In this document: piece by piece, positions 2,927-39,087 of the stretch
Numbering within the stretch: position 1 is the first letter of the stretch
Layout: each line of letters opens with the position of its first letter
Assembly (NCBI GenBank): GCA_964434285.1
Contig: CAYSUJ010000003.1
Span: 20,992 to 84,991, forward strand
DNA length: 64,000 nt
Source of the DNA: an uncultured Candidatus Saccharibacteria bacterium
GTDB lineage: Bacteria; Patescibacteriota; Minisyncoccia; Phycocordibacterales; UBA2100
Direction of reading: 5' to 3'
Notes under the pieces: model-generated
What the model saw: only the letters and a program-made list of their open reading frames with translations
The model's database searches: none
What the model was told of the DNA's origin: nothing
Made by a program: the position numbers and the translations under genes

Positions 2927-2933
2927 CTCTCTG

Positions 2934-17326: not shown

Positions 17327-17674
17327 CTACTCGGCCTTGCCGCCACGAGCCCAACTCTTGATTCGACCGGCCAACTCGTCTCCTCCTTCAGGATGATCAG
17401 CAACGAAATTCTCAGGCAGAACATGCGATTCATCGTCGATGACGATTCCAAAGGTCTGGTTGACGCCGTTGTAGTCAATCCCGAGAGGTGCCGCACCCTC
17501 TCCGTCGTCACAGGCCTCAGTGAACGTCTTGAGCAGGTGCGCGAAGAGATCTTCTTTATCCATGCTGCGAGAGAAGGAATCGAACCTTCGTCCCCCCATT
17601 TCAGGAAACTCTTTCGAGAAAAGTACCCTGAGAGTGGGGTGTCCTACCGTTAGACGATCCCGCAATACCGGCAT
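17327..17674 (-). CDS. Hypothetical acidic protein (115 aa)
   Basis: Longest ORF in the region with reasonable composition. No domain recognised. Confidence 0.3.
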   Translation of the reverse strand: MPVLRDRLTVGHPTLRVLFSKEFPEMGGRRFDSFSRSMDKEDLFAHLLKTFTEACDDGEGAAPLGIDYNGVNQTFGIVIDDESHVLPENFVADHPEGGDELAGRIKSWARGGKAE

Positions 17675-19821: not shown

Positions 19822-20232
19822 TTATCTTAGACGATATCCATGGCTTTGGCGTATACCCGTTTTCGTCAAAATTACACGGACCGCTAGATAACAAAGCGGG
19901 TAGAGAATAATCGCACATGCGAGCTCAAAATATTTACTGAGAAATGCCTCTGGTCCGTTTATCAGTCCGACCAAAAATAAGATGCCGAAATAAAGATAGT
20001 GGTAGAGAAGACTGCCCAATGGTCCCCATCGACCAGTTAGAATGTATAACAAAATAACGAACAACAAGAGGCCGATTAGTATCCCTAGAATTTGGAATGG
20101 ATATGCGACAAGGATAGACATTCCGGCTTCCCACAGCTGGCGATATGCACCTTCAAGCGCCCTGTCGTACATGGCAGGAATTCCAGAAATCATTTCTGTA
20201 ACCATCTCGACTGGCGTAGAAGTAGAAGTCAT
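19822..20232 (-). CDS. Hypothetical membrane protein (136 aa, 4 TM)
   Basis: Hydrophobic ORF. The stop overlaps the start of the upstream gene, which is typical of operon organisation. Confidence 0.45.
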   Translation of the reverse strand: MTSTSTPVEMVTEMISGIPAMYDRALEGAYRQLWEAGMSILVAYPFQILGILIGLLLFVILLYILTGRWGPLGSLLYHYLYFGILFLVGLINGPEAFLSKYFELACAIILYPLCYLAVRVILTKTGIRQSHGYRLR

Positions 20233-21290
20233 TTTCCGAGAATTAATTTGACCAAATCTTCTTCTTTTTCATAAGCACGAAATCGTCCCTCAAGCATCCC
20301 GAGTCGATAGTGTACTCCCTCGCTCATAAGCCGCCAATTGGTGCCTATTAGCGTCTTATTTATGAGTCTTTTCAGATCATGACTACTTGCTCGCTCTTCC
20401 CTGTCTGAAGCGATGTCATGAACAGTAAACGGCACAACGACATCACGACCAATCTCGGGATCTTTGAACTGGAGCTTGATATATTTGGCAGCCTCCATAG
20501 CGGGAGCCAATAATTGTTCTAGCTCGATGATTTTCAGTCTTCGTATATTCGCCACCTGGTCGTACAGCTCTTTGTTATTATCTTTCTCCTTCTGTTTTTC
20601 GAGAACCTCATTGATACTCCGCAGCGTCTGCATCCATCCCACATACCTCTGCCCTTCCGCCTCATCGCAGAACCGCGCACGATCCTTCTCGAAATCAGGA
20701 TCTATTTTTGGCTTATCAGCAATCCGTTCGATTTCGCTCACTTCCCTGTTTCCGCACTTAGGACAGGTAGAAATTGTGACAAACTTTTTCTTGGTAGTCT
20801 TGTCTTCCTGCTTGAAAGACGTCCTGCACTTCGGACACTTGGAGCTGTTGTATTTCCATTCTTCGCTGTTGTCATAGAAGGCGCGGCGCGGGATGTGATT
20901 CAGTGTGCAGTCGTACATGAACATGACCCGATGCGGCTTATCTAAATTCGTCTCCATATGCTTATGTGTGACGAACATCTCTCTGCCACAGGTAAGGCAG
21001 TTGATGCCCTTAGGAGCCTTTGCCGATTCGAAGAACTGGTCTTTTTCTTCGTCATCACGCATCCATTGAGTAATGGTTTTTTCCTTCTTTGAATACAGCT
21101 CCCCTGCCAAGAACCATACATGGAGTCGGCTAAAGGCACCGACCATGCGTTCCTTATCTTTCTTCGTAAGCTTCTTTTTCTCGTGCTTCTGAATGTCTTC
21201 TCCCGAGATCGCTTTTTCCGCCCAGCGACACCGTTCGATCGTCATGCGATCATAGCGATCTACATATTCCTGACGGGGCTTAAGATGCAT
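20229..21290 (-). CDS. Hypothetical protein with multiple zinc-ribbon motifs
   Basis: CLTCGREM, KCPKCRTSF and CPKCGNREVSE CxxC pairs. Lys/Glu-rich. No enzymatic domain recognised. Confidence 0.45.
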   Translation of the reverse strand: MHLKPRQEYVDRYDRMTIERCRWAEKAISGEDIQKHEKKKLTKKDKERMVGAFSRLHVWFLAGELYSKKEKTITQWMRDDEEKDQFFESAKAPKGINCLTCGREMFVTHKHMETNLDKPHRVMFMYDCTLNHIPRRAFYDNSEEWKYNSSKCPKCRTSFKQEDKTTKKKFVTISTCPKCGNREVSEIERIADKPKIDPDFEKDRARFCDEAEGQRYVGWMQTLRSINEVLEKQKEKDNNKELYDQVANIRRLKIIELEQLLAPAMEAAKYIKLQFKDPEIGRDVVVPFTVHDIASDREERASSHDLKRLINKTLIGTNWRLMSEGVHYRLGMLEGRFRAYEKEEDLVKLILGK

Positions 21291-22410: not shown

Positions 22411-23730
22411 ATGGAAAAGCTCATTTGGCATACCCAACAGCGGAAAGTAAACGAATTACTCCCCTTCAAGCAGAATCCTCGCAAGATGTCAGAAAGACAG
22501 ATTGCCGACCTTACCAAGTCTCTCAAGAAATACGGCCTCGTGGAGATCCCTGCTATCGATACGGATAACCGAATCCTAGCGGGTCATCAGCGACTCGCTG
22601 TCATGCAGCTCCTTGGTCGCGGCGATGAGATGATCGACTGCCGCATTCCTAACCGAAAGCTGACAGAGGAGGAATTTAAACAGTACCTCATCATTTCCAA
22701 TAAGGTGCATGGCGACTGGGATGAGGACATTCTTGCTGAGTACTTCGATATGGACCTTCTTCTTGATTCCGGATTCGATACCGAAGAATTGAGTGATGTT
22801 TTCTCAGAAGCCCTCGAAACAGAAGATGACAAATTCGATATCGAAAAAGAGTTAAAGAAGATTGAAGGGCCGAAGTCCAATTCTGGAGAACTGTATCAGC
22901 TTGGTCAGCATCGCCTTTACTGCGGAGACTCAACCAATCCCGAATCAGTCCTGAAAGTGGTCGGGGACGCGAAGATCGACATGGTGTATTGCGATCCTGT
23001 GTACAACATTAATCTTAGCTACAAGACAGGGATCGGCGGCACAAAAAACTATGGCGGGTCTGCCAAAGATGTTCGCTCCCCCGAGGAATACGAAACATTC
23101 TTGCACAAGACTATTGAGAACGCACTCGCTGTAGCCAAGCAAGATGTGCATGTCTTCTACTACTGCGATCAGACGTATGTCCCACTCATCGCTAAGCTCT
23201 ATGCCACGTTGGGCATCCGATTCATGCGCACCTGTATCTGGCTCAAGGGAGTGGCCAATCCAGTGCCGCAGGTCGCCTTCTCAAAGGTATATGAGCCCTG
23301 CGTATACGGCGTGCGCGGAAAGCCCTACCTCTCCCCTCACCACACCAACTATGACGAGGTGCTGAACAAGGAGATAGGGACTGGTGGTCAGATGATCGAG
23401 AATTTCCTCGACATGATCGATGTCTGGGCAGTGCAACGGCTCTCAGGCAGCGAGTATGAACACCCTACCGAGAAGCCGGTGACCCTCCATGACAAGCCGA
23501 TACGCCGCTGCACGAAGATCGGAGACAACATCCTTTCTCTCTTCGGCGGAAGCGGTGGTGAGCTGTTAGCAGCCCATCAACTCAACCGGAAGTGCTTTAT
23601 GGTCGAAATGGACCCTGTCTTCGTGGATCTCATTATCAGGCGCTACGAGGCATTTACCGGTGAGAAAGCGAAGCGTATCAGTGTACGAAATACGGACCGG
23701 AAATCGTTGAAAAGATTTGTCAGGAGTTGA
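22411..23730 (+). CDS. ParB-like nuclease N-terminal domain fused to a beta-class N6-adenine/N4-cytosine DNA methyltransferase
   Basis: N-terminal ParB/Srx fold (PAIDTDNRILAGHQRLAV). MTase motif IV DPVY (VYCDPVYNI) precedes motif I FGGSGGE near the C-terminus, which is the N6_N4_Mtase arrangement. No cognate restriction endonuclease gene is nearby. Confidence 0.75.
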   Translation: MEKLIWHTQQRKVNELLPFKQNPRKMSERQIADLTKSLKKYGLVEIPAIDTDNRILAGHQRLAVMQLLGRGDEMIDCRIPNRKLTEEEFKQYLIISNKVHGDWDEDILAEYFDMDLLLDSGFDTEELSDVFSEALETEDDKFDIEKELKKIEGPKSNSGELYQLGQHRLYCGDSTNPESVLKVVGDAKIDMVYCDPVYNINLSYKTGIGGTKNYGGSAKDVRSPEEYETFLHKTIENALAVAKQDVHVFYYCDQTYVPLIAKLYATLGIRFMRTCIWLKGVANPVPQVAFSKVYEPCVYGVRGKPYLSPHHTNYDEVLNKEIGTGGQMIENFLDMIDVWAVQRLSGSEYEHPTEKPVTLHDKPIRRCTKIGDNILSLFGGSGGELLAAHQLNRKCFMVEMDPVFVDLIIRRYEAFTGEKAKRISVRNTDRKSLKRFVRS

Positions 23731-24272
23731 ACAAGAATCCGAATATTAGCTACGTCTGCCGGAAAGTCGGTATCGACAAGAGCACATTCTACCGATGGCA
23801 GTCCAAATACGATACGTTCTTTCGCCGCATCTTGAGCGCGGAGATGTGGGGTCGGGAAAACATCAACGACGTGGCGGAAAGCGTCATCCTAAAAGCGGTT
23901 CACGCGGGTGATATGAAAGGTTCACAATACTGGCTCAGCCATAATCATCCGCGATACGTCGCTCTTGAACGAATCCCGTACCTCGCAAGCCTTAATAAAA
24001 GCCTGATTGAAGAGTTAAGTGCTCCGATCTCCAAAACATCCAAGTTCGAGCCGCTCTTCGAGTATTATTTCATCTGCGAAGAAGTGCAGAGGGATAAAGA
24101 AGCACGAAAGATGGTGGAGCCGCTCGTTAAGGTTGCCTGCGACGGCGACGAGGAACTTTACGAACTATTTTTTGCCTCGTATGCTGAGTGGAAAGCAGAA
24201 AAGATACGGATAATTAAGGAATATATCGATGCGGGGATTAGGCCGCCTCGCCCCAAACGTCGTAGAAGGTAA
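23727..24272 (+). CDS. Hypothetical protein (181 aa)
   Basis: Translationally coupled (ATGA overlap) to the methyltransferase gene. The N-terminal segment has a possible HTH. No confident family. Confidence 0.4.
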   Translation: MNKNPNISYVCRKVGIDKSTFYRWQSKYDTFFRRILSAEMWGRENINDVAESVILKAVHAGDMKGSQYWLSHNHPRYVALERIPYLASLNKSLIEELSAPISKTSKFEPLFEYYFICEEVQRDKEARKMVEPLVKVACDGDEELYELFFASYAEWKAEKIRIIKEYIDAGIRPPRPKRRRR

Positions 24273-25128: not shown

Positions 25129-25731
25129 CTACTTACGCGCGTCAATTATCGTCCGCACGTACTCTTTTAGCTGTTCCTGAGAAACTTCTGGCCATTTTTT
25201 GAGCTTGTTTTCCGTAAGAGAGTTCACGCAAATGACCAAAGACGGCACATCAGGATTCGGCGTCTCGAAAATCATGGTTGCAGTATTCGGTTTGAGTGCA
25301 ATTGCGTCGTGGAATACTCCCGCTTTCATTTTGTATGCTGATCCGACTGAATGGGTTATATCTTCACGCGTTGTAAGTGAGCATCTCATTCTTGTCATCT
25401 CAAGCGTAGAACTGTCTCCATGATTTTTCACTTCCCAGATTTTATAGTCCCCGTCCGGATCCAACGTCACATCATAGCGGCGTTCAAAGCCCTCTCCACA
25501 TAGGATATGGCTGGTGAAGTCAAAAGAGTGGTTGTGAATTCTGTCGGGCGCACCAAGTTCATCGACATTCATTGCCTCGGGCCAAAAGCGCAAACGAATT
25601 TTTCGAGGCCCTCCCTGGTCAACCTTTGCATGGATGAATCCGAGAGGGTGCATGTGCCCCTCGATTGACAACTTACTCTCGTAAATATCAGAGAGAATCT
25701 GATCTAATTCACTGTCAGATAGATATTCCAT
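25129..25731 (-). CDS. Hypothetical cupin-like protein
   Basis: IHNHSFDFTSHILCGEG resembles a cupin metal-binding His cluster. It is the last gene of the co-directional operon. Confidence 0.35.
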   Translation of the reverse strand: MEYLSDSELDQILSDIYESKLSIEGHMHPLGFIHAKVDQGGPRKIRLRFWPEAMNVDELGAPDRIHNHSFDFTSHILCGEGFERRYDVTLDPDGDYKIWEVKNHGDSSTLEMTRMRCSLTTREDITHSVGSAYKMKAGVFHDAIALKPNTATMIFETPNPDVPSLVICVNSLTENKLKKWPEVSQEQLKEYVRTIIDARK

Positions 25732-25803
25732 AAAACATCGCTACGCTAATTGGCGGGATAATACAACTCTCATGCTAAATTTCCAAATTCGTTATCCAGT
25801 ACT

Positions 25804-26451
25804 TTATTTCACTTCCCCGAGATGTGCGTGGTCATTCCAACCGAGCACATACCATCCTGAATCGTGAAGTCCAAACGACAAATCATATTGAATAAGCGTA
25901 ATGCCAGTATTGTGAGGAACGAACGTCCGTCTTATGTGATCGTATGCTTCTGGGGTTATTTTGTCTCCAAAAATAACCAACGCGAGCACCATTTTCAGGA
26001 ATTCTCCGTGGGTTACCACTAGAATATTCTGCTCCTTTCGTCCCGAGAGAAAGGCCATTGCCTCTTCGGCTCTCTGTTTGAGTTGGAAGTAATCTTCTTC
26101 ATCGGAATGCCGCTTGTGTGGGTCTGCAAACGTATCTTTAACAATACGCATAATAGACTTAACCTCGGCATCTTCCCTGTTTCTGCCACGCACTACCGAC
26201 GGACGCTTAATTTCCTCAAACAAAGGATTTTCGGTAACTGTATGCCCAGTACGTTCGGCGATAATGCGTGCAGTTTGTGCGGCGCGCGTCATTGAACTTG
26301 CAAATACCACGTCAACCGGGATACTTTCGAAACGCTTGGCCATGAATTGAGCCTGTTTGACACCTTTTTCAGATAATTCGACTACTGGGAGCTGGTATTC
26401 ACCGGCCTCATTGCCGTTCGTGGAGCCATGGCGAACAAAATAGATATTCAT
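25804..26451 (-). CDS. Histidine phosphatase (phosphoglycerate-mutase-like) family protein
   Basis: N-terminal catalytic IYFVRHGSTNGN (RHG motif), with a TH/GE pattern in the C-terminal half. Confidence 0.7.
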   Translation of the reverse strand: MNIYFVRHGSTNGNEAGEYQLPVVELSEKGVKQAQFMAKRFESIPVDVVFASSMTRAAQTARIIAERTGHTVTENPLFEEIKRPSVVRGRNREDAEVKSIMRIVKDTFADPHKRHSDEEDYFQLKQRAEEAMAFLSGRKEQNILVVTHGEFLKMVLALVIFGDKITPEAYDHIRRTFVPHNTGITLIQYDLSFGLHDSGWYVLGWNDHAHLGEVK

Positions 26452-26461
26452 AGCGGTAATT

Positions 26462-27214
26462 TTAAGCTATATCCGGCAAATTGCCGACCTTTTTTATAAC
26501 AGTTTCTAAACTCGCGAGGAGCGATTCTTCCGAGGGATCAATCGTAAGATCGGGCTTCGATGGTACTTCATACGGCATATCCTCGCCGATTTTGCCACCT
26601 TTGATATAAATCCAAAATGGGTTAATGAGTTCTGTGATTTTATCCCGCGTCGATTGAAAAGGAGCTATAACTGATACAACGACGTTGAATCCTTGGGCAT
26701 TCAGCATTTTCGCCAACCGAGCGACGCGCATATTATGTTCGTCGCGATCTTCTTTGCTGAACCCTAGATCAGTTGAGATCGATGCTCGCAACTCGTCTCC
26801 ATCGAGTACTACAGCATTCATCCTTTCCTTCAAGAGGTATGCAATCGAAGTTTTGCCAGCCCCAACATTACCAGTGAGCCAAATGATTCCCTTTTTGCTG
26901 TTTCTGATTTTCGTTGCCGAGATTTCTTCAACCTGTTTCTCCAGACGGATGCGTCTGATACCCCATCCAACATCACGCCCATAGCACACCTCTTTGATAT
27001 CTGGTATTGCGATGATCTCGACGTTCTCGTTATCCTCGTACACTTTTCTTATTCGTGCCATTCGTTCTTCGACCGTGTACGGATTACCCTCCGAAAAAGG
27101 AGTATCCCTCACTGCAATGACAACTTTCCCGCCCTCGTCGAGTACGACCTGTATGAGGGCTTTATGTCCGTCGTGAAATGGTTGCCACCTGCCGATGAAT
27201 AGTGATTTGCTCAT
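26462..27214 (-). CDS. Bifunctional TagD-like HxGH cytidylyltransferase / APS-kinase-like P-loop kinase fusion
   Basis: The N-terminal domain has FIGRWQPFHDGH (HxGH) and ISATKIR (ISxTxIR), the nucleotidyltransferase signature of the glycerol-3-P cytidylyltransferase/NMNAT family. The C-terminal domain has GNVGAGKTS (P-loop) and LDGDxLR...DLGFSKEDRDEHNMR, the adenylylsulfate-kinase family signature. Start trimmed to MSKSLFIG (ATG at 27214) to remove the overlap with the MAT gene. Confidence 0.65.
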   Translation of the reverse strand: MSKSLFIGRWQPFHDGHKALIQVVLDEGGKVVIAVRDTPFSEGNPYTVEERMARIRKVYEDNENVEIIAIPDIKEVCYGRDVGWGIRRIRLEKQVEEISATKIRNSKKGIIWLTGNVGAGKTSIAYLLKERMNAVVLDGDELRASISTDLGFSKEDRDEHNMRVARLAKMLNAQGFNVVVSVIAPFQSTRDKITELINPFWIYIKGGKIGEDMPYEVPSKPDLTIDPSEESLLASLETVIKKVGNLPDIA

Positions 27215-27218
27215 AGAT

Positions 27219-28454
27219 TTACGCCAAATCGTATTTGCCCAATAGTATCTGGTCGGTTGTTCCTGATACATTGCTCACAATCTTAGATACGATGTCGTTT
27301 GTAAGCTGCGGATCTAGCGGCTTACTCGAATTTACAATCACAGACCACGGAGTATCTATCGGCTTATCGGACTGGCTAACTATAAAGACTTCACACGGTA
27401 TTCCCATTTCTTTCCATATCTGCTGGGCGATGTCCCATGCCATTGCTGAATACAGTTTTCCTGCATGATACTGCGGATTCTTTCCGCTTAAGCCCTCGAT
27501 ACTAAAGGGTCTTCGAGACGAAATAACGCCGCCTAAGCGATTTCCACGCGCCACCTGTCCTTCGTCGCCGGATTCAATACAAGACCCCGTGTACAGAAGA
27601 TAGAAAAGATCGTCCCGCTGACCATCTGCCGTATTCAGGGTGAAGTTGATATTAAGGGGTTCGTATTTGTCGCAAATCTTGCGAATGAACGATCTTATTT
27701 CTTCTAGGTTCACTTTATATTCTTTCGGCGAAGCAACTTCGGTCGATATCTGTGGCACACAAAGCGTCAAATCAACATCCTGTCCCCGCCTGACGGCCAT
27801 AATTTTTATGTCATAACCAAGCCATGAATAGGTTTTCCTGGTCTCATCAGCATTCAATGTCTGCTCAACTTCAAGCACTAATCGCTCAAGAGGCGTGTAA
27901 GGTGCCCAACCACAACCAACAGCGGTGTCGTTCGCGACAGGGCGCGTATATTCGGGTAAATCGGTCAACTTGCCAGGACGAAAGCGTGAGTATGCGGAAG
28001 AACGAGCGGTATTACTGTCCGCCGGTTGTAGCCCTCGGGTTGTATTTGAGGTAATTTCGACCATCAGCCGACAGTTGGTAAGAAAGTCAAAATTTCTTAA
28101 TTCCCTTTCCAAAAAGTCAGATGCGGCACCCACAAGCGCGTCGCGATAGAGTATCTTTTCCTCCCCAACTTGAGGCGTAACTCGCCCATTGATAAGTAAC
28201 CGCACTGGGGATACGAAATTACCGCCACCAAAGCGGACATCGCATTTCCCGCCCATCAACGAGAGCTTGTCGAACTGATGTCTCAAAATTGTTCCAAACT
28301 TATCCCTACAAATCTGGGCATAGGTACGAGACAAGAGTTCCGCCAGCCGATCCGCCAGAGTGTCAGGGTGTCCACGCCCTTTGCGTTCAACAATCTCAAA
28401 ATCAGACATCGAGAGATCCTCTAAATTGGTTACGAGATTCAGGTTAAGGGACAT
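27219..28454 (-). CDS. Archaeal-type methionine adenosyltransferase (SAM synthetase, PF01941 family)
   Basis: Alignable throughout to M. jannaschii MAT: [18 protein letters not shown] vs [50 protein letters not shown] vs [57 protein letters not shown] vs [41 protein letters not shown]...[20 protein letters not shown] vs GDDGSVGRGNRVNGLI...MSMEAASGKNPVNHVGKIYN. Confidence 0.85.
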   Translation of the reverse strand: [411 protein letters not shown]

Positions 28455-28466
28455 AGAAATTTGTTA

Positions 28467-28976
28467 TTAGCTAAATACATCCTTTGCAATGAGTTTTTGC
28501 CATTTCTCCTCATTCCAGTCACGCCAGCCCTGTATAACCTCATCTTTGAGCACATCCGGCACGATTTCAGGCGGACTTCCGAACGAGTTAGGAAATGTAT
28601 CATTGATGTGTTGATCCTGTAAAACAGGCCACTTTGTGAAGCCGCCCATGACGGGAGAACGTAGGCCAAATACAACCCTTTTGATACGTAACTCCTGAGT
28701 GGCAAAGGCACACATGGGGCAAGGCTCAACCGAGGAATAGAGAGTCGATTCCGCCAGCTCATCCGGAGTAAGAGCCTTTTGTGCATCCAAAAGGGCTAGC
28801 ATTTCTGCATGACGGTATACCTCGCTCTTATCAAGAGCTTCGTTGTGTCGCTCGCTAATGACTTTGCCCTTAAAAACCACCAGGGCACCAAAGGGGAAAT
28901 CCTTACTTCGAGAACCGAGGGCGGCAACTCGGATACATTGGCGCATATACATGGCATCGTCGTTCCTGTCCTGCAT
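28467..28976 (-). CDS. CMP/dCMP-type (cytidine deaminase fold) zinc deaminase
   Basis: The HAEMLAL (H-A-E) and PCPMCA (PCxxC) zinc-binding motifs of the CDA superfamily. The size and architecture resemble TadA/guanine-deaminase-like nucleoside/base deaminases. Confidence 0.7.
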   Translation of the reverse strand: MQDRNDDAMYMRQCIRVAALGSRSKDFPFGALVVFKGKVISERHNEALDKSEVYRHAEMLALLDAQKALTPDELAESTLYSSVEPCPMCAFATQELRIKRVVFGLRSPVMGGFTKWPVLQDQHINDTFPNSFGSPPEIVPDVLKDEVIQGWRDWNEEKWQKLIAKDVFS

Positions 28977-28996
28977 AGCCCCCTTTTAGCAGAAGT

Positions 28997-30049
28997 TCAG
29001 CCTTTTATCAAAGTCCGCCTTAGCTTTCCCCTTTCAGATTCAACAAATTTCTCTGCATATGCATGATTTTCTTCACTAATCTGCCTGCGTTTTTTCTCGC
29101 TGTCAGGCTCGAAGCTTCGGTTTTTTTGCGGATCTTTTGAGTATGTCTTTGTACGCTCCAACATTCCTTGGACTTCAGGGTTGGTCAGAGATAAGTTCCA
29201 CGCTGAATCGAGTATTGCGGGAAGTTCACTGGTAATCTGCAAGTAGTCCACAAAAAGCGCGTTCTGGTCATCATGTGCGAGTGCCTTTTTACAAAAAGTA
29301 CCGAGGAGACGGCATGCATACTCGCCATCGGTCAGAGATTCGGTTTCCGATTCACTCAGCCCAAGTATCGGAGCAAAGAACGACACATGAGTATGGCGGC
29401 TACGCATCCAGCCCGGTGGATCCCGCAAGACGGATTCGAGTACTTCTGCTCCATTACGATGAGTGAACATCCATCGAACACTTGGATACAAACTCAATAT
29501 CTCATCAATGAATAGAATATTCCAACTACGAAACTTTACGAATACACGCTCGCAGTGATCGGGCTTGCAGGCATAAATCGCACTGAGAGCCGCCTTAAGG
29601 AGTTGTTGCTTCGTTAAACCGCCAGGCAATTTCAGCGCAGGGTTCAATATCGCAAGTGCAATAGTTGGTTCTGACACAACATAAAATCGATCCACCGTTG
29701 CCAGCATCTGCATTGCAAGTGTGGATCCACAACGAGACATGTGGAAAATAAAGTGTGTCCCTTGTTCGTTAATATTCCTATCTTGAAAGTCGCGCGCAAA
29801 CACGTCAACTGGGACAAGTTCAATTCGCGGATCGTTCATATCGTAATGTAGCGGACGAACCAATACATTTTGCTCCTCTCCGATGAGCTTATTTACATCC
29901 GCCACACGAAACTGACCAGCAAGAGAATCGAGAAAGAACGGGTCTGTCAGGTTGATCTTCGGTACTTTTGCAAGAACAACATGACATTCCCCATTGGCGA
30001 TGTGTAAATCGATAGGGAGTGATACGGTCTTGTTTGACTTTTCGTCCAT
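28997..30049 (-). CDS. Sulfotransferase family protein (PAPS-dependent)
   Basis: FIFHMSRCGSTLAMQML matches the 5'-PSB loop of Sulfotransfer_3-type enzymes. A downstream 3'-PB-like region is present. It is co-operonic with the APS-kinase-like domain. Confidence 0.55.
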   Translation of the reverse strand: MDEKSNKTVSLPIDLHIANGECHVVLAKVPKINLTDPFFLDSLAGQFRVADVNKLIGEEQNVLVRPLHYDMNDPRIELVPVDVFARDFQDRNINEQGTHFIFHMSRCGSTLAMQMLATVDRFYVVSEPTIALAILNPALKLPGGLTKQQLLKAALSAIYACKPDHCERVFVKFRSWNILFIDEILSLYPSVRWMFTHRNGAEVLESVLRDPPGWMRSRHTHVSFFAPILGLSESETESLTDGEYACRLLGTFCKKALAHDDQNALFVDYLQITSELPAILDSAWNLSLTNPEVQGMLERTKTYSKDPQKNRSFEPDSEKKRRQISEENHAYAEKFVESERGKLRRTLIKG

Positions 30050-30055
30050 ATAGCA

Positions 30056-31078
30056 TCACGTTTGGTGCCCCAAAAGTTGTTTGAGGATATGGTCTGATAT
30101 ATTCGGCAAGGTAATGCGGTCGGAGATTCCGAGCGCCGCGGCAACACCATTGATCGCACGTACGAAGTTTATGCTTCGTATCAAATCCCCGCGTTGACGC
30201 TTGTCGAATACGCCACGCGGTTGGCGCACAAGATATTCTTGTGCCTCTTTGTAGATTGGCTGAGTAGGCACCGGCATCGCATCAATGAGTTTGTAACTCC
30301 ACGAACCATTTTCCTTAAAGAAAATCACATTATCCTCCCCAGCAAGCGCGAGAATCTGCCCCTCATTCTTGGCGTACGATATTGCCTTTTGAACGAAATC
30401 TATAAGGGCATCTTTGAGACCAGAATCAGTGTGCGCACGCTCAGTAAGGTGCGTGAGGAACCTCCCAGACGAAAGGTCTTGGAATTCCAAAAACTCCTTC
30501 TCGTCCACCTGCCGCCCCTCAAGTAAGTCATGCGTCATTTTGAGATAAACCGCTTCGTCTTGCGAAGAGTTTTCAGGATAATTACCGAAAGAAAAAGCCA
30601 GACGTCCTGGATATTCGGCTTCTTCACTAAACTTTTGGACAGCGACGTGCGTCCATACACTTCGGACTTTTCGTGCCTCTTCGGGCAACTTTCTACCAAT
30701 GTAATCGTCGCGGAATAATTCCTCCAATATCTCGGCCGAGATGGGAACCTGCATCAAATAACGCCTTTCTTGCAAAGCATGATCCGATCCGAAATGCCTC
30801 CAAAGATTTCGCGCTTCTGCGTTTTTGCGCCACACATCCCCGGCCGAATACACTTCGGCGTACGCCCGCATACTGTCTTCATCCGTAATACCCTTTGTGT
30901 AGCATTCATACAAAATGTCTTTGATTTTTCTCCAAGAGGCCTTAACGACCAATTCGGGATGCTTAGGAACGCGATACACTAAGTGATCTCCACCTCGCTT
31001 ATAGAACTCGGGCTTGAAGCGCGAAATAATATCGGCATCCTCCGGCAATTTATCAAATACTCCCTTGTCCAAATTCAT
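30056..31078 (-). CDS. Hypothetical protein, possible atypical kinase-like fold
   Basis: No clear motifs except a Gly-rich GGDHLVYRV near the N-terminus and scattered conserved Asp. The kinase assignment is speculative. Confidence 0.35.
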   Translation of the reverse strand: MNLDKGVFDKLPEDADIISRFKPEFYKRGGDHLVYRVPKHPELVVKASWRKIKDILYECYTKGITDEDSMRAYAEVYSAGDVWRKNAEARNLWRHFGSDHALQERRYLMQVPISAEILEELFRDDYIGRKLPEEARKVRSVWTHVAVQKFSEEAEYPGRLAFSFGNYPENSSQDEAVYLKMTHDLLEGRQVDEKEFLEFQDLSSGRFLTHLTERAHTDSGLKDALIDFVQKAISYAKNEGQILALAGEDNVIFFKENGSWSYKLIDAMPVPTQPIYKEAQEYLVRQPRGVFDKRQRGDLIRSINFVRAINGVAAALGISDRITLPNISDHILKQLLGHQT

Positions 31079-32067
31079 ACTTTTTGAAAGTAACTTTTAA
31101 CGACTTTATCTCCGGCGTGCAAAAGCTCTTCTCGGGAAACGATGTCCAAAACCGTAAATTTATCGTCACGCGGACGAACCCGTCCAAGTACAGAAACTAT
31201 TTGATCGGCCGTTGTATTTTCCTGAATGTACTCGTGCATATCCACGTCTTTTTTAAGATACTCAACAATAGTATCAGTTATTGCATTCCCGTATCCCGCC
31301 TGCACCTGCAGTTGCTGTGTTACGAGAATCCCAAATAACAAGCCCATGCCATGCGGACACGCCTTTTCGCTCTCAATGTAGGAAGAAATGATGTGTTCTG
31401 ACCCACTAACCAATCTTCCGCTTCCCTGCAGTCTTGTAAGACTACCGGATTCAAGCAAACAATCGAGTAATTCCTTGAGTGCTTCTCGGGTGAACGGCTG
31501 GGAGAGTAAATCCAGAGATCTTTGAGCCAGCTTTTGTGCGCGACCACGCAAGGCAGAATCAAATACCTCACGGTGACGCTCGACAGCAATATCACAGTCT
31601 ACTTGAGCCGTGGCAGTTGCCGCCACCTCAACGATACCGAATTTATTTAGAATGTACGCCTGTTCCAACAAGTCAAAGTCAACAACGATTTCACTGGCAA
31701 CAACAGAATTGGAACTGAGCTTGCCGTGTTCAGAATCGAAAAAACTATTCCGGTGAGTTGCAAAAGAATTTGTAGACAGCGCGGACGGAATAAAACAAAA
31801 CGTACTATTCGTTTTGTGGCAGATATATTTAACAACATCAACAACTGTTCCAGCACCTATGGCGACTATCCGTGCATTTTTCTGCTTAAAATCACGAAGA
31901 AAAGTATCAAGGTCATGACGGTCGGCCCTCGCAACTTCTAAAACATTAAAGCGGGTTTTAGCTAGATGCTTTGTGTAATCGTTGACGATATAGAGATCGA
32001 AGTCCTGTTGCGAGAGATAATCTGCCACCCCACGAAAGGTCACTTTTGGGTCTGGTAGGGATAGCAT
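31075..32067 (-). CDS. DHQ-synthase-like / Fe-ADH superfamily enzyme (sugar-phosphate cyclase or glycerol-1-phosphate dehydrogenase-like)
   Basis: RIVAIGAGTVVDVVKYI is the Gly-rich NAD-binding turn. The domain order and the SGSEHIISSYIE metal-site-like region are typical of the DHQS/G1PDH/glycerol dehydrogenase superfamily. Start trimmed to MLSLPDP (ATG at 32067). Confidence 0.55.
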   Translation of the reverse strand: MLSLPDPKVTFRGVADYLSQQDFDLYIVNDYTKHLAKTRFNVLEVARADRHDLDTFLRDFKQKNARIVAIGAGTVVDVVKYICHKTNSTFCFIPSALSTNSFATHRNSFFDSEHGKLSSNSVVASEIVVDFDLLEQAYILNKFGIVEVAATATAQVDCDIAVERHREVFDSALRGRAQKLAQRSLDLLSQPFTREALKELLDCLLESGSLTRLQGSGRLVSGSEHIISSYIESEKACPHGMGLLFGILVTQQLQVQAGYGNAITDTIVEYLKKDVDMHEYIQENTTADQIVSVLGRVRPRDDKFTVLDIVSREELLHAGDKVVKSYFQKV

Positions 32068-32210
32068 ATTGTCTCCTATTTTCCGCTGTCTTCGGTGGCA
32101 TACTAACAAAAATGATGAGGAAATAAAGGCTTTTAGGCTACTAAGTTACCAACACCTAAGGTTTCCGAGGCGTCCTTGACTCCCTAAGGGGTCAGCGTCA
32201 TTCATGGGAT

Positions 32211-33536
32211 ATGGAAACTACAACAAGAGCCACAGGGATTATCGGCAAGCAGGTCGTCCAAGAAGCGGTCAAAGTAAGGTACTGCTTGTATGCGAGAAAG
32301 AGCACCGAGTCGGAGGAGCGGCAAGTGCTCTCGATAGATTCGCAAATCAAAGAGATGCTTCAACTGGCGGAGCGAGAAGGCCTTGAGATCGTTGCCATGA
32401 AGCGTGAATCGCACTCCGCAAAAGAGACGGGTCAGCGGCCAGTCTTCAATGAGATTGTTAATGAAATAAAGGCTGGCAAATACAACGGCATTCTCACATG
32501 GGCGCCGGATCGTATCAGCAGAAATGCGGGCGATCTTGGTAAGGTTGTGGACTTGATGGATTCCGGTGGTTTACAGGAAATTCGGACATACAGTCAAAGT
32601 TTTCGGAATAATCCGAACGAAAAGTTTCTGCTGATGATTCTCGGGTCGCAGGCGAAGCTCGAAAATGATAACCGAGGCATGAACGTGAAGCGCGGTCTGC
32701 GAACGCGCGTTGAAATGGGTCTATGGCCGACAACTCCGCCGACCGGATATTTGACACAGAAAATGATGGACAAGAAATGTCAGGTCGTTATCGATCCTGA
32801 GCGTGCGCCCATCGTCAAAAAGATGTTCGAGAAAGTGGCGTACGAAAAGTGGTCGGGTCGGCGTGTGTACCACTGGCTCCGATTCGAGCTGAACTTCCAT
32901 ACGACGGGCAACAAGCCGCTCGCCTGCGGCAACGTGTACCGTACGTTGACTAACCATTTCTATTACGGTGTCTTCGAGTTCCCGAAGAAGAGCGGAAACT
33001 GGTACAACGGCAAGCACGAGCCGATCATCAGCAAGGAATTGTTCGACGAAGTGCAGAAACAGTTGAAGCGTGACAGCATTGTGCGTCAAAGTCGTGAATT
33101 CGCGTTCACGAAGCTCATAACGTGCGGCCTGTGCGGATCAACCTTCAGCGCGGAGGAGAAGTACAAACAGCTCAAAGACGGCACGGTCGCAAAGTATATC
33201 TACTACGGCTGTGGTCGTGCCAAGGATTTACACTGCAAGAATACGTACCTACGCGAGGAAGAGTTGATCGAGCAGATCATAAAAGCATTTGATCAGGTAG
33301 ATTTTAACGAACTAGGGATTCAGCATAAGTTCGAGGAAGAGCTGCGCCGATTCAACAAGTTCCAACGCGGTGTACTTGGCTTCTCTGGCTCAAAAACGAC
33401 ACACGAGGAGGTAGATTTACGTACTTACGCGAAATACACCTTGAAGGAAGGTACAGGTGCCGAAAAGCGCGAGTTAATGGGATGCTTCAAATCGAGGATC
33501 AAGATTACTAAAGGAATAGTGACTATCGAGCAATAG
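32211..33536 (+). CDS. Large serine recombinase (resolvase/invertase N-terminal catalytic domain plus recombinase domain plus zinc ribbon)
   Basis: YCLYARKSTESEERQVLSIDSQ carries the catalytic Ser in an RxS(T) context. Resolvase fold, then a Recombinase domain and a C-terminal Cys cluster CGLCGSTF...YYGCGRAKDLHCKN. Confidence 0.85.
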   Translation: METTTRATGIIGKQVVQEAVKVRYCLYARKSTESEERQVLSIDSQIKEMLQLAEREGLEIVAMKRESHSAKETGQRPVFNEIVNEIKAGKYNGILTWAPDRISRNAGDLGKVVDLMDSGGLQEIRTYSQSFRNNPNEKFLLMILGSQAKLENDNRGMNVKRGLRTRVEMGLWPTTPPTGYLTQKMMDKKCQVVIDPERAPIVKKMFEKVAYEKWSGRRVYHWLRFELNFHTTGNKPLACGNVYRTLTNHFYYGVFEFPKKSGNWYNGKHEPIISKELFDEVQKQLKRDSIVRQSREFAFTKLITCGLCGSTFSAEEKYKQLKDGTVAKYIYYGCGRAKDLHCKNTYLREEELIEQIIKAFDQVDFNELGIQHKFEEELRRFNKFQRGVLGFSGSKTTHEEVDLRTYAKYTLKEGTGAEKRELMGCFKSRIKITKGIVTIEQ

Positions 33537-33555: not shown

Positions 33556-36500
33556 TCACCCCTCTTCCTGTAGTGGCAGATCTGAAACAAAAAGTTTAAT
33601 TGCTGCCGCTTTGTTCTTGAATACAAATTGTACTTTCTCGTAGATGTTTATGAGCACTCTACGACGCAGATATCCCTCCTTGTCTGCATACTCCCTCAAC
33701 CAAGCTGGATCTTGAGAGATGAGCTTGGCTCGGGCGGCATCGTCTTTATTCAGATCAGTAACTTTCAATTCAAATATTTCCTCCCTGTGAGTCTTATCCT
33801 GTGTGTCATTGGTTGGTGCGTACTGTACTAGCTCGCCCAGCTCCTTGAGCGAGGTAACCACGAGAAAGTTTTTGACATCTGCGTCATTAGTAAATACGCG
33901 GAAAATCGGTACGTATTTTTCTCCTATTTTGAAATAACCATCGCACCAGCGGTCCTCGTCAAACGAGGACTTTGGACGATTTCGATGATCCCATCGAGGA
34001 ATAAACGCCTCCGACCTTCGTATCCCTCCGTCATACTCGAACATGTGGTCGAGCGACTCGATGACGATGAGATTTTCGTCATCCAACGTCAAAATTGCTC
34101 TTTCAACTGCGGGGACGATATCATTCTTTGGAATAGTCTCTTTGGTTTCTAGGCCCTCAAGGATGTCACGGAAAATAATCTGACTCTCCGAGCTTGCCAT
34201 GCCATTGCCATAATTTTCGCCCCATCCGGCGTAGTGGACATGCCAATTTTTTATAAATGCGGCCTTCTCATCCAACTGGTTGTAGCCATACGCTTTAACC
34301 TCTGCATTAGCGGTGTCAGTGCGATCAACATACGTACCCGCTCTCGTGATGATGCTTCGGATTACGCTTCCATCATGAAAAGCATCGAGAAAAGATTTTT
34401 TGAATTCAGCCAGCTTCTCGGGGTCTATGTCCGTCCGTTTGACACGCTCCTCCTCGTCTTTTTCCTGTGCGTCTTTTGCTTTGGTCAGTAATGTTTTTAG
34501 TATGCCTGTCTTGGAAAGTGCAACTGTATCCAAAATAAATTCCCAATTTGTTGGCGAAGTTTCGATATCGGTAAGTAGTTTCCACAAAGCGCCATCGCGC
34601 TGCTCTGCAAGGAACGCCAAATCACGATTGTGAGGCAGCTCAATCGTATCCACATTGTCTGATGTGACCCCTCTTAAGAGAGTGAGGGCATTCACTGCGT
34701 AGAGCCGGTCGAGCTTACTATTGAAATCTATAGTATGAACTTCACCGTCCGGTATGAGTTCCCAATTATCCCAATTCCAAAATCGCTCAACATCGAAATC
34801 TCGAGCCGAAGAATAAAGAGTGGTGAGCTCTTTTATTTCATGCGGCAGATAATTTTTAATATCATTGTAATAAGCTCTAAGCTCCGTATCGTTCTGATGG
34901 AGGCGCACCATCTCAAAAATCCAAGTCGCCATGCCAAACACTAACTGCTGCTTGCGGCGCTGAATTTTCTCGGTGGCGTCCTGTCGAGCCTTCTGCAGAT
35001 CTAGCTTTTCTTGCAATATCTTTTTCTCCTCATCAGTCCGCGCAGACTCAAGGTCGTATTCGCTATAACGCGAGAATTCTTGGTCGCGTATCAAGTGACG
35101 GTAGAGAGTATTTAATTGGGACAAAAATTCTTTAAAACTATCCCTATCGCGCTTGTCGAAGGCGGTTTTGATGAGGTCCTGAAAAGTCTGGAAAACGGGT
35201 ATCGAGAAGTCAGCATACTCCGTCAATTTCTTTGCGTCGCCAATCTTGCGAGTCAACTGATTTTCTATGTAGTAGTCAGTAATTTCCTTCAGATGCCTCC
35301 ACGACCTGTCGATCATGAACTCTCGTAATGAAGGTGCGAGGCCTTCTGTTGTAGTTGCGAGCCAATACACTCGTGACGGAAACCGCACAAACACTTGATA
35401 CAGGTACTGATCCCCATACTTGATAGCGCGGGTAGCAATGGCCATCGGCAGATAAATGACGGTCGAGATAATTTCTCGATCGCGACTTTCTACAGCCTTC
35501 TCGACAATGTCTTGGATACTGTCTTCAAGCCACCCTATATTGAGCTGGCCACCAAAAAGATTCCCGCGTTCCTGCTTGGCCTGATCGTAACTGAAACCGC
35601 CGCCACAACGCGTGATCATCTCAAGGAAGGACTCGGAAAGACTTAGGTACGTTTTTCTGAGATCATCGATCTTGCCGAGCTTTTTCTCTACGATAGCGGT
35701 AATGAATTGATCCTTGAGTCCCGCCAACTCCAGATTGACCTCCTCTGAAAAATTATCCTCTTTGCCAATGATGAAAGCCTCTTGTGCCAGTTTTTGCAAT
35801 TTCTTAAGCACACCTTTGTCGGTGACACTGCGTTTCTCCACGGCGAGCAATATCATGTTGCCCGATTCGTCCCTATCTTTGAATTCAACGCGATCGGCAT
35901 ACTTTTTGACGAGGAATTGCCGGACCGTAGTGTAATTTCTGGTCGCCGACGAGGATGGAGTTGAGGCTGGGTCACCCGCTGAGAGCGTTGGCGGGCGCGG
36001 CTTGTCTTTATAAAAACTGAAGCCATTTTTATTCGCCTCACTCTCAGCGAGCTTGGCAAACTCGTCCAGTTTGTCGAGTCGTATATCCTTGACGACACCC
36101 GCTGTATCCGCAGAAAACGCATGGTGAGTCTCTTCCTCGTCACTCATCAAAAACGGATTATACGTAAGCTCGATTTTGTTCTCGCCCAACCTCTGTATAA
36201 GAAGATTGTCGGCGTAGCGTTCATTCATTCCCAAGTCGATGCTTTGCTCAATACGATCTTTGAGGAGACGCATCCGCTTTTCATAAAACAGTACCTTGCT
36301 GAGCAAGATGTTCACGAGTCGCCATAGAGAAATTATTGTAAAAATTCCCACCAAAAAAACCAGCACTGCACTCCATGCATTTACATCGAACCAAATGAAA
36401 TTCAGAAATACGAGGATTTCTCCTACAGTGAGCGGAAATAGCATGCTCTCGCGTAAGTACACCCGTGCGCGATCTTTCGTCTCGTCGTCTCTAACGCTTT

Positions 36501-36972
36501 CGGCGACAAAAATAATCAGTGCAAAAATTATCGCTCCCACACCGGCTAAGACGGCAATGAGATTCTGGTAATGATTGCTTTCTTTGAAATCAAGAGCGCC
36601 GAGCGACAGCCCGAAATGAGGCCACCACGAGTCCGGAGTGTGAGAAAGGCCGGAGAGTACAAGTATTGGTACAAGCACAGTAATCAAAGACTTCCACGAT
36701 GGGGTGTAGATTTGTTCAATCCAGCGCGTGAAAAAAGATTTGGGCGAGGTCTTACACGAGCGCTCTATTTCTTGCCTGACCAGGACGGATAGGAGATTTG
36801 TATTACTGCCTCTCTGCGTGTGCCAAAATGACCAGACGGCAAGAGCGGCTACTGTAAGCGCCAAGACAAGCCAAAGATGGTTAGGACTGCTTAGGAAAAC
36901 GCAAAAGCTGGCGGCGGCCGCAATAATCAAGAAGGGCGTGAGCCAGATTTTGTTACAGAAATAACATTTCAT
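33556..36972 (-). CDS. Large hypothetical membrane-anchored protein (1138 aa)
   Basis: The N-terminal ~230 aa have 5-6 TM helices. They are followed by ~900 aa of soluble, partly coiled-coil sequence with no recognisable Walker, nuclease or other catalytic motif. Confidence 0.6.
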   Translation of the reverse strand: MKCYFCNKIWLTPFLIIAAAASFCVFLSSPNHLWLVLALTVAALAVWSFWHTQRGSNTNLLSVLVRQEIERSCKTSPKSFFTRWIEQIYTPSWKSLITVLVPILVLSGLSHTPDSWWPHFGLSLGALDFKESNHYQNLIAVLAGVGAIIFALIIFVAESVRDDETKDRARVYLRESMLFPLTVGEILVFLNFIWFDVNAWSAVLVFLVGIFTIISLWRLVNILLSKVLFYEKRMRLLKDRIEQSIDLGMNERYADNLLIQRLGENKIELTYNPFLMSDEEETHHAFSADTAGVVKDIRLDKLDEFAKLAESEANKNGFSFYKDKPRPPTLSAGDPASTPSSSATRNYTTVRQFLVKKYADRVEFKDRDESGNMILLAVEKRSVTDKGVLKKLQKLAQEAFIIGKEDNFSEEVNLELAGLKDQFITAIVEKKLGKIDDLRKTYLSLSESFLEMITRCGGGFSYDQAKQERGNLFGGQLNIGWLEDSIQDIVEKAVESRDREIISTVIYLPMAIATRAIKYGDQYLYQVFVRFPSRVYWLATTTEGLAPSLREFMIDRSWRHLKEITDYYIENQLTRKIGDAKKLTEYADFSIPVFQTFQDLIKTAFDKRDRDSFKEFLSQLNTLYRHLIRDQEFSRYSEYDLESARTDEEKKILQEKLDLQKARQDATEKIQRRKQQLVFGMATWIFEMVRLHQNDTELRAYYNDIKNYLPHEIKELTTLYSSARDFDVERFWNWDNWELIPDGEVHTIDFNSKLDRLYAVNALTLLRGVTSDNVDTIELPHNRDLAFLAEQRDGALWKLLTDIETSPTNWEFILDTVALSKTGILKTLLTKAKDAQEKDEEERVKRTDIDPEKLAEFKKSFLDAFHDGSVIRSIITRAGTYVDRTDTANAEVKAYGYNQLDEKAAFIKNWHVHYAGWGENYGNGMASSESQIIFRDILEGLETKETIPKNDIVPAVERAILTLDDENLIVIESLDHMFEYDGGIRRSEAFIPRWDHRNRPKSSFDEDRWCDGYFKIGEKYVPIFRVFTNDADVKNFLVVTSLKELGELVQYAPTNDTQDKTHREEIFELKVTDLNKDDAARAKLISQDPAWLREYADKEGYLRRRVLINIYEKVQFVFKNKAAAIKLFVSDLPLQEEG

Positions 36973-37134: not shown

Positions 37135-37221
37135 GGCGGAGGGTGAGAGATTCGAACTCTCGGTGGGTTACCCCACGCTCGCTTTCCAAGCGAGTGCACT
37201 AGACCACTATGCGAACCCTCC
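37135..37221 (-). tRNA. tRNA-Ser(GGA)
   Basis: Manual fold of the reverse complement. Acceptor GGAGGGU/ACCCUCC, U8, 3-bp D-stem with a GG-containing D-loop, anticodon stem CUCGC/GCGAG with loop UUGGAAA (anticodon GGA). Long variable arm GUGGGGUAACCCAC, T-arm GAGAG-UUCGAAU-CUCUC, discriminator G. CCA is not fully encoded (CCC). Confidence 0.85.
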
Positions 37222-38775: not shown

Positions 38776-39087
38776 CTAGCGCTTGATGTCGAGAGAAGCG
38801 ATAAGCTTATTGAGAACACGCATGACCTCAGAGAGTTTTTCTTCACTCGCCGAGATGTGAGCGGTATCCACATACGATAAATCCCTCAGAAGTACGAAAT
38901 ACGTCTCTAGTTCCGCCCCGGAACCATAAGCAATGCGAAGAAATTGGACGTATTCAGCCCGATGTCCGCGAGAATATCCTTCCGCAATATTCGCTGGTAT
39001 GGAAACTGATGCGCGACGCATCTGACTCGTGAGCCCGAACATTTCTGCCTTCGGGAATTTCTCCGTGAGGTGATAGACATCTTTCAC
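38776..39087 (-). CDS. Four-helix-bundle protein (family commonly encoded in 23S rRNA intervening sequences)
   Basis: The MRRASVSIPANIAEGYSRGHRAEYVQFLRIAYGSGAELETY block matches the TIGR02436 four-helix-bundle family. Confidence 0.75.
   Translation of the reverse strand: MKDVYHLTEKFPKAEMFGLTSQMRRASVSIPANIAEGYSRGHRAEYVQFLRIAYGSGAELETYFVLLRDLSYVDTAHISASEEKLSEVMRVLNKLIASLDIKR

Follow-up and report, generated by a model that had tools for sequence, protein, structure and literature searches.

A membrane-anchored protein family with a predicted HK97-like capsid fold, carried on mobile islands and recurrently linked to restriction-modification operons

The stretch of DNA analyzed here (the window, 64,000 nucleotides of contig CAYSUJ010000003.1 from an uncultured Candidatus Saccharibacteria bacterium) carries a gene for a protein of 1138 amino acids (aa), in which N-terminal transmembrane (TM) helices are followed by a long soluble part. 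This gene is probably a member of an undescribed family of mobile, defense-linked inner-membrane proteins. Its C-terminal domain is predicted to adopt the HK97 fold of phage major capsid proteins, and its relatives recurrently stand at the end of restriction-modification (R-M) operons. It is likely that the family works in the conflict with phages or other mobile elements and is functionally tied to R-M. A further-reaching idea, which we regard as possible though doubtful, is that these proteins would be the first case of a prokaryotic immune receptor derived by exaptation from a viral capsid fold: the HK97-fold domain would sense the heads of tailed phages or soak up capsid-binding anti-restriction proteins and fire a membrane effector, as a mobile second layer repeatedly joined to R-M operons of all types.

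The capsid resemblance emerges from structure prediction. Residues 866-1138 were modeled alone, from a 29-sequence alignment and without templates (model m5a6b63955d0a), and this isolated domain reaches a predicted local distance difference test (pLDDT) value of 90.7 and a predicted template modeling score (pTM) of 0.87. Compared with the PDB by Foldseek, it gives 104 matches at E<=1e-3, the top 50 of which are all HK97-fold capsid proteins; HK97 gp5, lambda gpE and the proteins of P2/P4, SaPI1, N4, P1, Bxb1 and the archaeal virus HFTV1 are among the matches. The alignments extend over 250-340 columns, and thus about the whole domain, with TM-scores (TMq) of 0.35-0.53, root-mean-square deviations (RMSD) of 5-12 Å and 7-12 % identity. 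TM-scores of about 0.5 are typical between distant HK97-fold proteins. The best and most numerous PDB matches of the full-length model are likewise HK97-fold major capsid proteins and encapsulins, and each named match in its top 50 in BFVD is a capsid or head protein (TMt up to 0.59). The capsid structures of P4 Sid and PLE TcaP also appear among the Foldseek matches. The secondary-structure elements seem to come in the order that the HK97 fold requires: a short helix and a beta-hairpin are followed by a loop rich in Gly and a spine-like helix of 24 residues, then by the mixed alpha/beta core, and two long strands end the chain.

By predicted structure only, the domain can be assigned to this fold. 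Sequence membership in the capsid and encapsulin families (Phage_capsid and relatives, Linocin_M18) was not found: when 29 C-terminal domains were scanned with Pfam at E<=10, no consistent capsid signal appeared (one member matched Phage_capsid_4 at E 0.24), and searches of the PDB sequences with one profile for the full family and another for this domain retrieved nothing relevant, and no capsid. The original prediction, which was made from the letters of the DNA, did not notice the fold, the most informative feature of the protein and one that cannot be seen at the sequence level. A role as virion capsid gene is ruled out by the TM anchor, by the absence from phages and by the lack of a morphogenesis module; Pfam detects no portal, protease/scaffold, terminase or encapsulin-cargo genes adjoining the window gene, whose neighbors are instead a recombinase, a tRNA and a biosynthetic-type cluster. 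Formation of a closed icosahedral shell is also unlikely, given the membrane-anchored N-terminal extension of ~880 residues.

At the opposite end of the protein, a 19-residue hydropathy scan detects six hydrophobic segments (~9-27, 32-50, 92-112, 138-156, 177-195 and 202-220), which coincide with helices (residues 6-224) of a full-length AlphaFold2 (AF2) model built from a 44-sequence alignment (m8728986dee27; mean pLDDT 83.1, pTM 0.68). This agrees with the original prediction of five to six N-terminal TM helices and a soluble part of ~900 aa, although only four of the six are conserved family-wide: TM1-2 are variable or optional and missing in ~40 % of members (alignment occupancy of residues 1-55, 0.59), and TM3-6 are conserved. 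The charges flanking the segments suggest, following the positive-inside rule, an N-in topology that would place the remaining ~910 residues in the cytoplasm.

Conservation is distributed very unevenly over this architecture. Residues 130-180, which comprise the Gly/Ala-rich TM4 QNLIAVLAGVGAIIFALIIFV and a charged loop AESVRDDETKDRARVYLRES, share 79 % mean pairwise identity across phyla, with 3.7-3.8 bits per column and the invariant residues N137, G144, I149, L152, I154, F155 and A157. Identity elsewhere is 53 % in TM5-6 and the stalk, 37-45 % in the solenoid and 34 % in both alpha/beta domains. An abundance of small residues is typical of TM helices that pack tightly and line a pore, and the TM4-loop element is a candidate effector or oligomerization core. 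Its contrast with the HK97-like domain is the pattern of a constrained effector combined with a faster-evolving sensor; the effector-plus-sensor layout proposed earlier fits the conservation data.

The middle of the protein is less distinctive. The small alpha/beta domain of the model contains a disordered insert (330-343), and the solenoid has only generic Foldseek matches, namely designed helical toroids, importin-beta and CRM1. Where the soluble part had been described as partly coiled-coil, the model shows short to medium helices, the longest of 45 residues, packed into a solenoid or bundle and accompanied by the two alpha/beta domains, so that we reject an extended coiled coil. The reported absence of known motifs, on the other hand, was borne out: a motif scan of the protein found no Walker A, HExxH or RxxxxH (HEPN-type) motif, and Pfam, PADLOC 2.0, NCBIfam and PHROGs gave no significant match to the whole protein. 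Its weak matches to P2 (E 0.02) and TauE (E 0.87) are noise. Nor does the protein look like a transporter of the major facilitator superfamily (MFS), since it has six hydrophobic segments instead of 12 TM helices and no MFS match in Pfam; the MFS traces in the family concern two individual homologues, one with the source label "MFS transporter" and one with a precomputed MFS_1 domain (PF07690).

The link to defense is drawn from the genomic company of the relatives. We compared ~35 non-redundant loci of homologues (L-numbers; Table 1), and in 18 of them R-M genes lie directly upstream on the same strand. The large gene is typically the last of the operon, often with 2-8 nt between it and the gene before, or with an overlap of the two. 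About one percent of the genes of prokaryotes belong to R-M, and measured against this general figure, their position beside the large gene in half of the loci lies far beyond chance. The neighborhoods, with R-M of every major type, Abi_alpha, the anti-phage system CBASS and mobile islands, speak strongly for the earlier guess of a defense or abortive-infection function, although PADLOC has no model for the protein. The accompanying idea of a single-gene system applies to the window copy and not to about half of the relatives, which are co-operonic with R-M genes. Conjugation or entry exclusion, offered at the time as an alternative, finds little support: prediction places the large domain in the cytoplasm, and conjugation genes occur in L022 only.

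The family itself is large, thinly spread and under selection. One database search yielded 73 full-length homologues of constant size and 28-88 % identity, which lack a Pfam domain or informative name save for the two MFS-labeled members; a protein identical to that of the window exists in public data (P0001). An exhaustive HMMER search of 1.84 billion cluster representatives extends the family to 907 clusters (50 % identity) at E<=1e-3 and 351 at E<=1e-30. Among the 150 best listed clusters, most have 1000-1200 aa, the shorter ones being apparent fragments or split copies. Comparison with the 88 %-identical homologue of L002 gives a ratio of nonsynonymous to synonymous substitution rates (dN/dS) of 0.043 at a saturated dS of 1.56, and below 0.08 for each domain, which indicates a functional gene under strong purifying selection. 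Copies are found in 25 of 185,579 species-representative genomes, scattered over many Patescibacteria classes, Atribacterota, a delta-proteobacterial metagenome-assembled genome (MAG), Gammaproteobacteria, Planctomycetota (Scalindua), Fusobacteriales, Bdellovibrionales and Caldisericaceae; with an Ignavibacteria MAG and a cyanobacterial (Pseudanabaena) plasmid as further sources, the family extends over more than 10 bacterial phyla. Searches of complete E. coli genomes (megablast), of 50,697 phage genomes (INPHARED, tblastn) and of 2.9 million IMG/VR viral contigs gave no copy. Such a sparse and scattered distribution points to a horizontally moving accessory gene, and on this ground we reject a housekeeping membrane protein. 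Homology to a housekeeping protein conserved outside mobile contexts, which the original prediction had named as the finding that would speak against it, was looked for and did not appear.

A few members deviate from the common form. The plasmid search returned one distant member only, L035 on pPg_05 of Pseudanabaena galeata, which is a distant branch that kept the predicted capsid-fold end and has a different membrane module; its protein has N-terminal TM helices, and its gene lies downstream of a PIN-domain gene and a gene for an 802-aa unknown. Searches of the big protein database for other architectures, with the C-terminal profile and with the TM module, detected no domain shuffling; apart from a fragment (P0217), they returned only P0218, the N-terminal 202 aa of a copy split into 202 + 855 aa. 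Two split homologues were seen, at L054 8001-11170 (202 + 855 aa, 7-nt overlap) and at L022 9932-13048 (760 + 266 aa), and may be frameshifts, pseudogenes or sequencing errors.

How could such a protein act? Phage major capsid proteins are frequent triggers of bacterial defense, as illustrated by CapRel, Lit/Gol and PifA, the latter with T7 gp10. Bacterial defense can also act on the assembly of virions, as Tai does on that of tails (PMC11364771), and membrane-anchored defense by a single protein exists in the form of SNIPE (bioRxiv 10.1101/2025.11.03.685801). In the model that we infer for the defense function, ligand and effector activity of the family, four to six TM helices would anchor the ~910-residue arm at the cytoplasmic face of the inner membrane. 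When a tailed phage has escaped restriction, the HK97-like domain would engage its head-assembly machinery, either the capsomers of the major capsid protein through homotypic contacts of capsid type, or those proteins for which the capsid fold is the normal binding partner, namely scaffold, protease or portal. Copies would then cluster on the growing lattice, and a signal could pass through solenoid and stalk to the TM4-loop module, which might oligomerize and depolarize or permeabilize the membrane. As a consequence, the infection would be aborted or head assembly derailed. The gene would thereby act late and form a second line of defense after the early one of R-M, with whose genes it is usually co-transcribed. 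This late second-layer model is the simplest that uses the membrane anchor, the variable arm, the capsid fold, the selection, the mobility and the R-M linkage together; we nevertheless put the specific combination of capsid bait and membrane effector at somewhat below an even chance.

Several observations weigh against it. No sequence-level link to capsid families was detected in the Pfam scan of the 29 domains or in the profile search of PDB sequences, no recognizable pore, enzyme or nuclease motif was found by Pfam and motif scan, and PADLOC-DB 2.0, which includes Zorya, Kiwa, Tmn, Druantia and PDC candidates, returned 0 families at E<=1. The conservation of the TM helix could instead mean binding to a conserved host membrane partner. 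About one third of the loci (L014, L015, L027, L008 and others) have no recognizable defense neighbor, and the window copy itself has no adjoining R-M genes: it stands alone between recombinase and tRNA, ~10-14 kb from the island methyltransferase, unlike its R-M-appended relatives. Finally, the gene co-travels with the recombinase, ParB-type methyltransferase and helix-turn-helix (HTH) core of one island family and might consequently serve the element rather than defense.

Four other explanations have to be considered in this light. The protein could be a non-lethal assembly poison, whose tethered HK97-like domain co-assembles with or caps capsomers, keeps them at the membrane and gives rise to aberrant or unpackaged procapsids, with the TM helices acting as anchor or in oligomerization only and cell death being unnecessary. 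The evidence from fold and context is identical for this explanation and for the capsid bait with membrane effector. It can further draw on the established interference with tail assembly by Tai (PMC11364771), on satellites that remodel HK97-fold capsids (P4 Sid and PLE TcaP, both met above in the structural matches) and on the phage-derived core genes of the island family, including the terminase of L056. A mere anchor, however, would not need the high identity of the TM4-loop across phyla, and stoichiometric poisoning of a protein present in thousands of copies requires very high expression of an 1138-aa membrane protein; we hold this explanation to be unlikely. A second possibility shifts the action to genome entry. 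A capsid-fold decoy at the inner membrane might re-bind ejected, capsid-associated anti-restriction proteins of the Dar type, or otherwise assist R-M at the entry site. The partners of the gene are of unrelated enzymology (types I, II, IIS, IIG and III), which suggests a function generic to restriction and not bound to one enzyme, and the membrane is the site of genome entry (compare SNIPE). There is also a precedent on the phage side, since the DarA-Hdf anti-restriction proteins of P1 bind the inner surface of an HK97-fold capsid and exit with the DNA (PMC12810830). Yet the gene also occurs without adjacent R-M, in the window, L002, the L033 prophage, L014, L015 and L027, capsid-borne anti-restriction proteins are known from few phages, and the conserved TM4-loop is left without a role. 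As an entirely speculative proposal, it appears quite unlikely to us.

The island association raises the question whether the gene has a core function for the mobile element, be it DNA tethering or transfer, superinfection or entry exclusion against related elements, or as the domesticated remnant of the element's own head gene. It recurs together with the serine recombinase (56-81 % identity), the ParB-type methyltransferase and the HTH protein in the window, L002, L011, L026, L032, L056 and L057; the window and L002 have only the large gene (81 % nucleotide identity) and the recombinase (65 %) in common and differ in their cargo; and L022 lies in an integrative and conjugative element (ICE) with TraG and an integrase. 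Many copies in R-M operons, such as those of L010, L016, L018 and L020, nonetheless have no recombinase within 7-10 kb, and the architecture stays constant across very different elements. The absence of members from the viral contigs and phage genomes further shows that this is not a virion gene, and the predicted cytoplasmic position of the domain argues against surface exclusion, which altogether makes a core element function quite improbable. It could also be asked whether the capsid resemblance reflects homology at all, or an unrelated alpha/beta fold or prediction artifact in a transporter or ordinary membrane protein that hitch-hikes on islands. The range of TM-scores, RMSD and identity given above, the failure of sequence searches to link it to the capsid families of Pfam or to capsids in the PDB, and the two MFS-labeled homologues could be taken in this sense. 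We consider this very improbable, as the match lists are homogeneous and contain capsids of unrelated phage lineages that cover about the whole domain, the template-free domain model is very confident and its TM-scores are usual for distant HK97-fold proteins, the query has no transporter family match apart from the TauE trace, and a housekeeping gene would not be expected to be so thinly distributed and so mobile.

In the window, the gene forms part of an island and lies near its right-hand edge. The recombinase gene converges on it with 19 bp in between, and 162 bp separate it from tRNA-Ser(GGA), past which ordinary host genes for an HtpX-type M48 peptidase and LemA follow (Pfam); the earlier description of an 1138-aa open reading frame (ORF) as the single large gene between recombinase and tRNA was confirmed with its coordinates. 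In L016, tRNA-Ser(GGA) likewise borders a homologous block of R-M genes and the large gene. From ~18 to 37 kb, the G+C content is 0.40-0.50, mostly 0.44-0.48 (with the exception of kilobase 23-24 kb, up to 0.52), and it is higher in the flanks, mostly 0.50-0.54. When the two ends of the island were compared for att-like direct repeats, only short chance matches came up, as expected for a serine recombinase. Around the gene, promoter-like sites are at chance level (4 vs 5.2 expected), and terminator-like stems (10 vs 3.7 in shuffles) lie within coding sequence in all but one case and are uninformative. We abandoned the idea that the 182-aa and 297-aa ORFs to the right of the tRNA are counterparts of the 181-aa and 295-aa ORFs that follow the gene in L007: BLAST gives no match, and the product of the 297-aa ORF is the HtpX-type peptidase.

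The relatives outline the element family to which the island belongs. Homologues of the recombinase (56-81 % identity) lie next to the large gene in L002, L007, L026, L032, L056 and L057, and tblastn finds homologues of methyltransferase and HTH protein in L011, L026, L032, L002, L056 and L057. A recurrent core thereby becomes visible in genomes mostly of the candidate phyla radiation (CPR), consisting of a ~440-aa recombinase, a ~439-aa ParB_N-N6/N4 methyltransferase and a ~180-aa HTH protein, with a cargo that varies between type I or ISP R-M, Mrr and CBASS. L056 also carries a large terminase, which suggests a phage-derived element, and the island family may be phage-derived or satellite-like. 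In the window, the overlapping 353-aa and 136-aa ORFs, whose L011 homologues flank the large gene, have no Pfam match and no informative PDB match; they are a candidate restriction or defense partner of the methyltransferase, with which they may form an R-M-like module of the island's own.

Further features of the window were noted in passing. At 25129-32109 (minus strand), a cluster of eight same-strand genes inside the island encodes a 200-aa unknown, a histidine phosphatase, a cytidylyltransferase-like and adenosine phosphosulfate (APS)-kinase fusion, an archaeal-type S-adenosylmethionine (SAM, AdoMet) synthetase (PF01941), a dCMP/cytidine deaminase, a sulfotransferase-like protein, a 340-aa unknown and a Fe-ADH_2/DHQS-like protein. 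None of its genes has a homologue in the other loci compared, and the cluster looks like a pathway for a modified nucleotide or nucleoside or a SAM-related metabolite; we speculate that the extra, divergent SAM synthetase could relate to phage SAM-depletion counter-defense. A LOOT RNA motif (RF03000; 24807-24923, minus strand; 61.5 bits vs a gathering threshold of 46.4) sits between this cluster and the HTH gene. A 100-nt tRNA at 17565-17664 (minus strand), called by Rfam and missed by ARAGORN, shares 97 % identity with the tRNA-Gln(CTG) of L002 over its first 30 nt, and some 30 nt are inserted behind the anticodon region. Probably this is a tRNA-Gln with an intron, and the low-G+C island has its left edge here. 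Among the host features are a 103-aa ORF at 38776-39087 (minus strand), 53 % identical to a 23S_rRNA_IVP-family gene of L002, and a bacterial class A RNase P RNA at 2933-3357 (minus strand); both are compatible with a genome of Patescibacteria type.

Table 1. Coordinates of the gene, its domains and neighboring features in the window, and composition of the homologue loci (MTase, methyltransferase)
Feature	Position or locus	Strand	Basis or remark
1138-aa membrane-anchored protein, complete gene	33556..36972	minus	ATG start, 1138 codons, stop 33556-33558; ORF list and translation
Membrane module, residues 1-224	36301..36972	minus	six hydrophobic helices; hydropathy and AF2
TM4 and predicted cytoplasmic loop, residues 130-180	36433..36585	minus	most conserved family element
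Stalk helix (226-260) and small alpha/beta domain (~261-405), residues 225-405	35758..36300	minus	DSSP and pLDDT of model
All-alpha solenoid or bundle, residues 406-878 (~470 aa), ~25 helices	34339..35757	minus	AF2 model
C-terminal alpha/beta domain, predicted HK97 fold, residues 879-1138 (~260 aa)	33559..34338	minus	domain model and Foldseek
Large serine recombinase, 441 aa, island integrase	32211..33536	plus	Pfam Resolvase, Recombinase and Zn_ribbon_recom
tRNA-Ser(GGA), right-hand island edge	37135..37221	minus	ARAGORN, Rfam
439-aa N6/N4 DNA methyltransferase (ParB_N-MTase in relatives)	22411..23730	plus	Pfam
Island core pair, methyltransferase and 181-aa HTH protein	22411..24272	plus	Pfam; tblastn
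353-aa ORF	20229-21290	minus	homologue L011:3427-4485, 54 % (tblastn)
136-aa ORF	19822-20232	minus	homologue L011:8036-8425, 37 % (tblastn)
Type I R-M upstream	L007; L032		L007 HsdR-HsdM-HsdS then gene, 3-nt gap; L032 HsdM-HsdR then gene, 8-nt overlap
Type III R-M upstream	L020, L034; L016; L031		L020 and L034 Mod-Res then gene
Type II R-M upstream	L006; L010; L018		L006 MTase-DpnII
EcoRI-type MTase upstream	L019
Type IIS upstream	L050		AlwI with two methylases
Type IIG/ISP upstream	L046, L057
MTase and DUF262-HNH upstream	L017, L049
ResIII helicase and Fic upstream	L013
N6_N4 MTases or candidate R-M nearby	L026, L037, L011
Abi_alpha immediately upstream	L041
Prophage	L033		lone opposite-strand gene
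ICE with TraG and tyrosine integrase	L022
Island with CBASS (patatin, SMODS, AGS_C), HEPN and ParB-methylase	L002		88 % relative
Distant member, 1021 aa	L035, 5823-8888		Pseudanabaena galeata plasmid pPg_05; C-terminal ~310 residues match the family hidden Markov model, E 2.7e-54

If the capsid-bait model holds, it would represent a new principle of immunity, in which a structural fold of viruses serves as bait for viral structural proteins, and an analogue of the homotypic death-fold/CARD recognition known from eukaryotes. It would also add a further cellular use of the HK97 fold beside capsids, gene transfer agents and encapsulins, and it would explain the recurrent, unannotated "extra gene" that ends R-M operons of types I, II and III. 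Many of these operons belong to Patescibacteria (CPR), a group in which few defense mechanisms are understood. The resulting layered defense, with early restriction and a late capsid-sensing backstop, could be put to the test. Even if the mechanism proves wrong, a previously unannotated family of ~900 clusters has been delimited, with a domain map, a conserved membrane motif and a strong genomic association.

Comparison with known systems places the family beside several of them and inside none. With HK97-fold capsids and encapsulins it shares the predicted fold of residues ~879-1138, for which Foldseek returns this class only; it differs from them in having no sequence similarity, in the fusion of the domain behind ~880 residues with 4-6 TM helices, in the lack of head-module or cargo neighbors and in its absence from phage collections. 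PrrC, from the EcoprrI type I locus, and RloC offer a parallel as extra genes co-transcribed with restriction genes, plausibly as a back-up when restriction fails. They are, however, soluble ABC-ATPase anticodon nucleases, whereas the 1138-aa protein is membrane-bound, has no P-loop or nuclease motif (Pfam, NCBIfam, motif scan) and shows no homology to them. CapRel-SJ46, Lit/Gol and PifA resemble it in the proposed trigger, the major capsid protein late in infection, and PifA of the F-plasmid is in addition membrane-associated and causes membrane leakage; none of these proteins has a capsid-fold domain or is homologous to ours. The fold-against-fold (homotypic) recognition proposed here would be unprecedented. 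Tai, Sid, CpmB and TcaP similarly act on morphogenesis and not on nucleic acid, and they are carried on mobile elements (PMC11364771), but they are small soluble proteins of other folds. SNIPE comes close as a single large, constitutively membrane-localized defense protein with a cytoplasmic working part; its nuclease domain targets injected DNA through contacts with the tape-measure protein and ManYZ (bioRxiv 10.1101/2025.11.03.685801), while in the 1138-aa protein no nuclease domain is detectable and the structural neighbors are capsids and helical repeats only. The full text of open-access papers and preprints contained nothing comparable to an HK97-fold domain in defense, R-M or membrane contexts. 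The family failed each membership test that was run except the one at the level of the fold and, in 18 of the ~35 loci though not in the window, the one for attachment to an R-M operon; we therefore propose it as a new family and architecture, with a function suggested by its genomic context and predicted structure.

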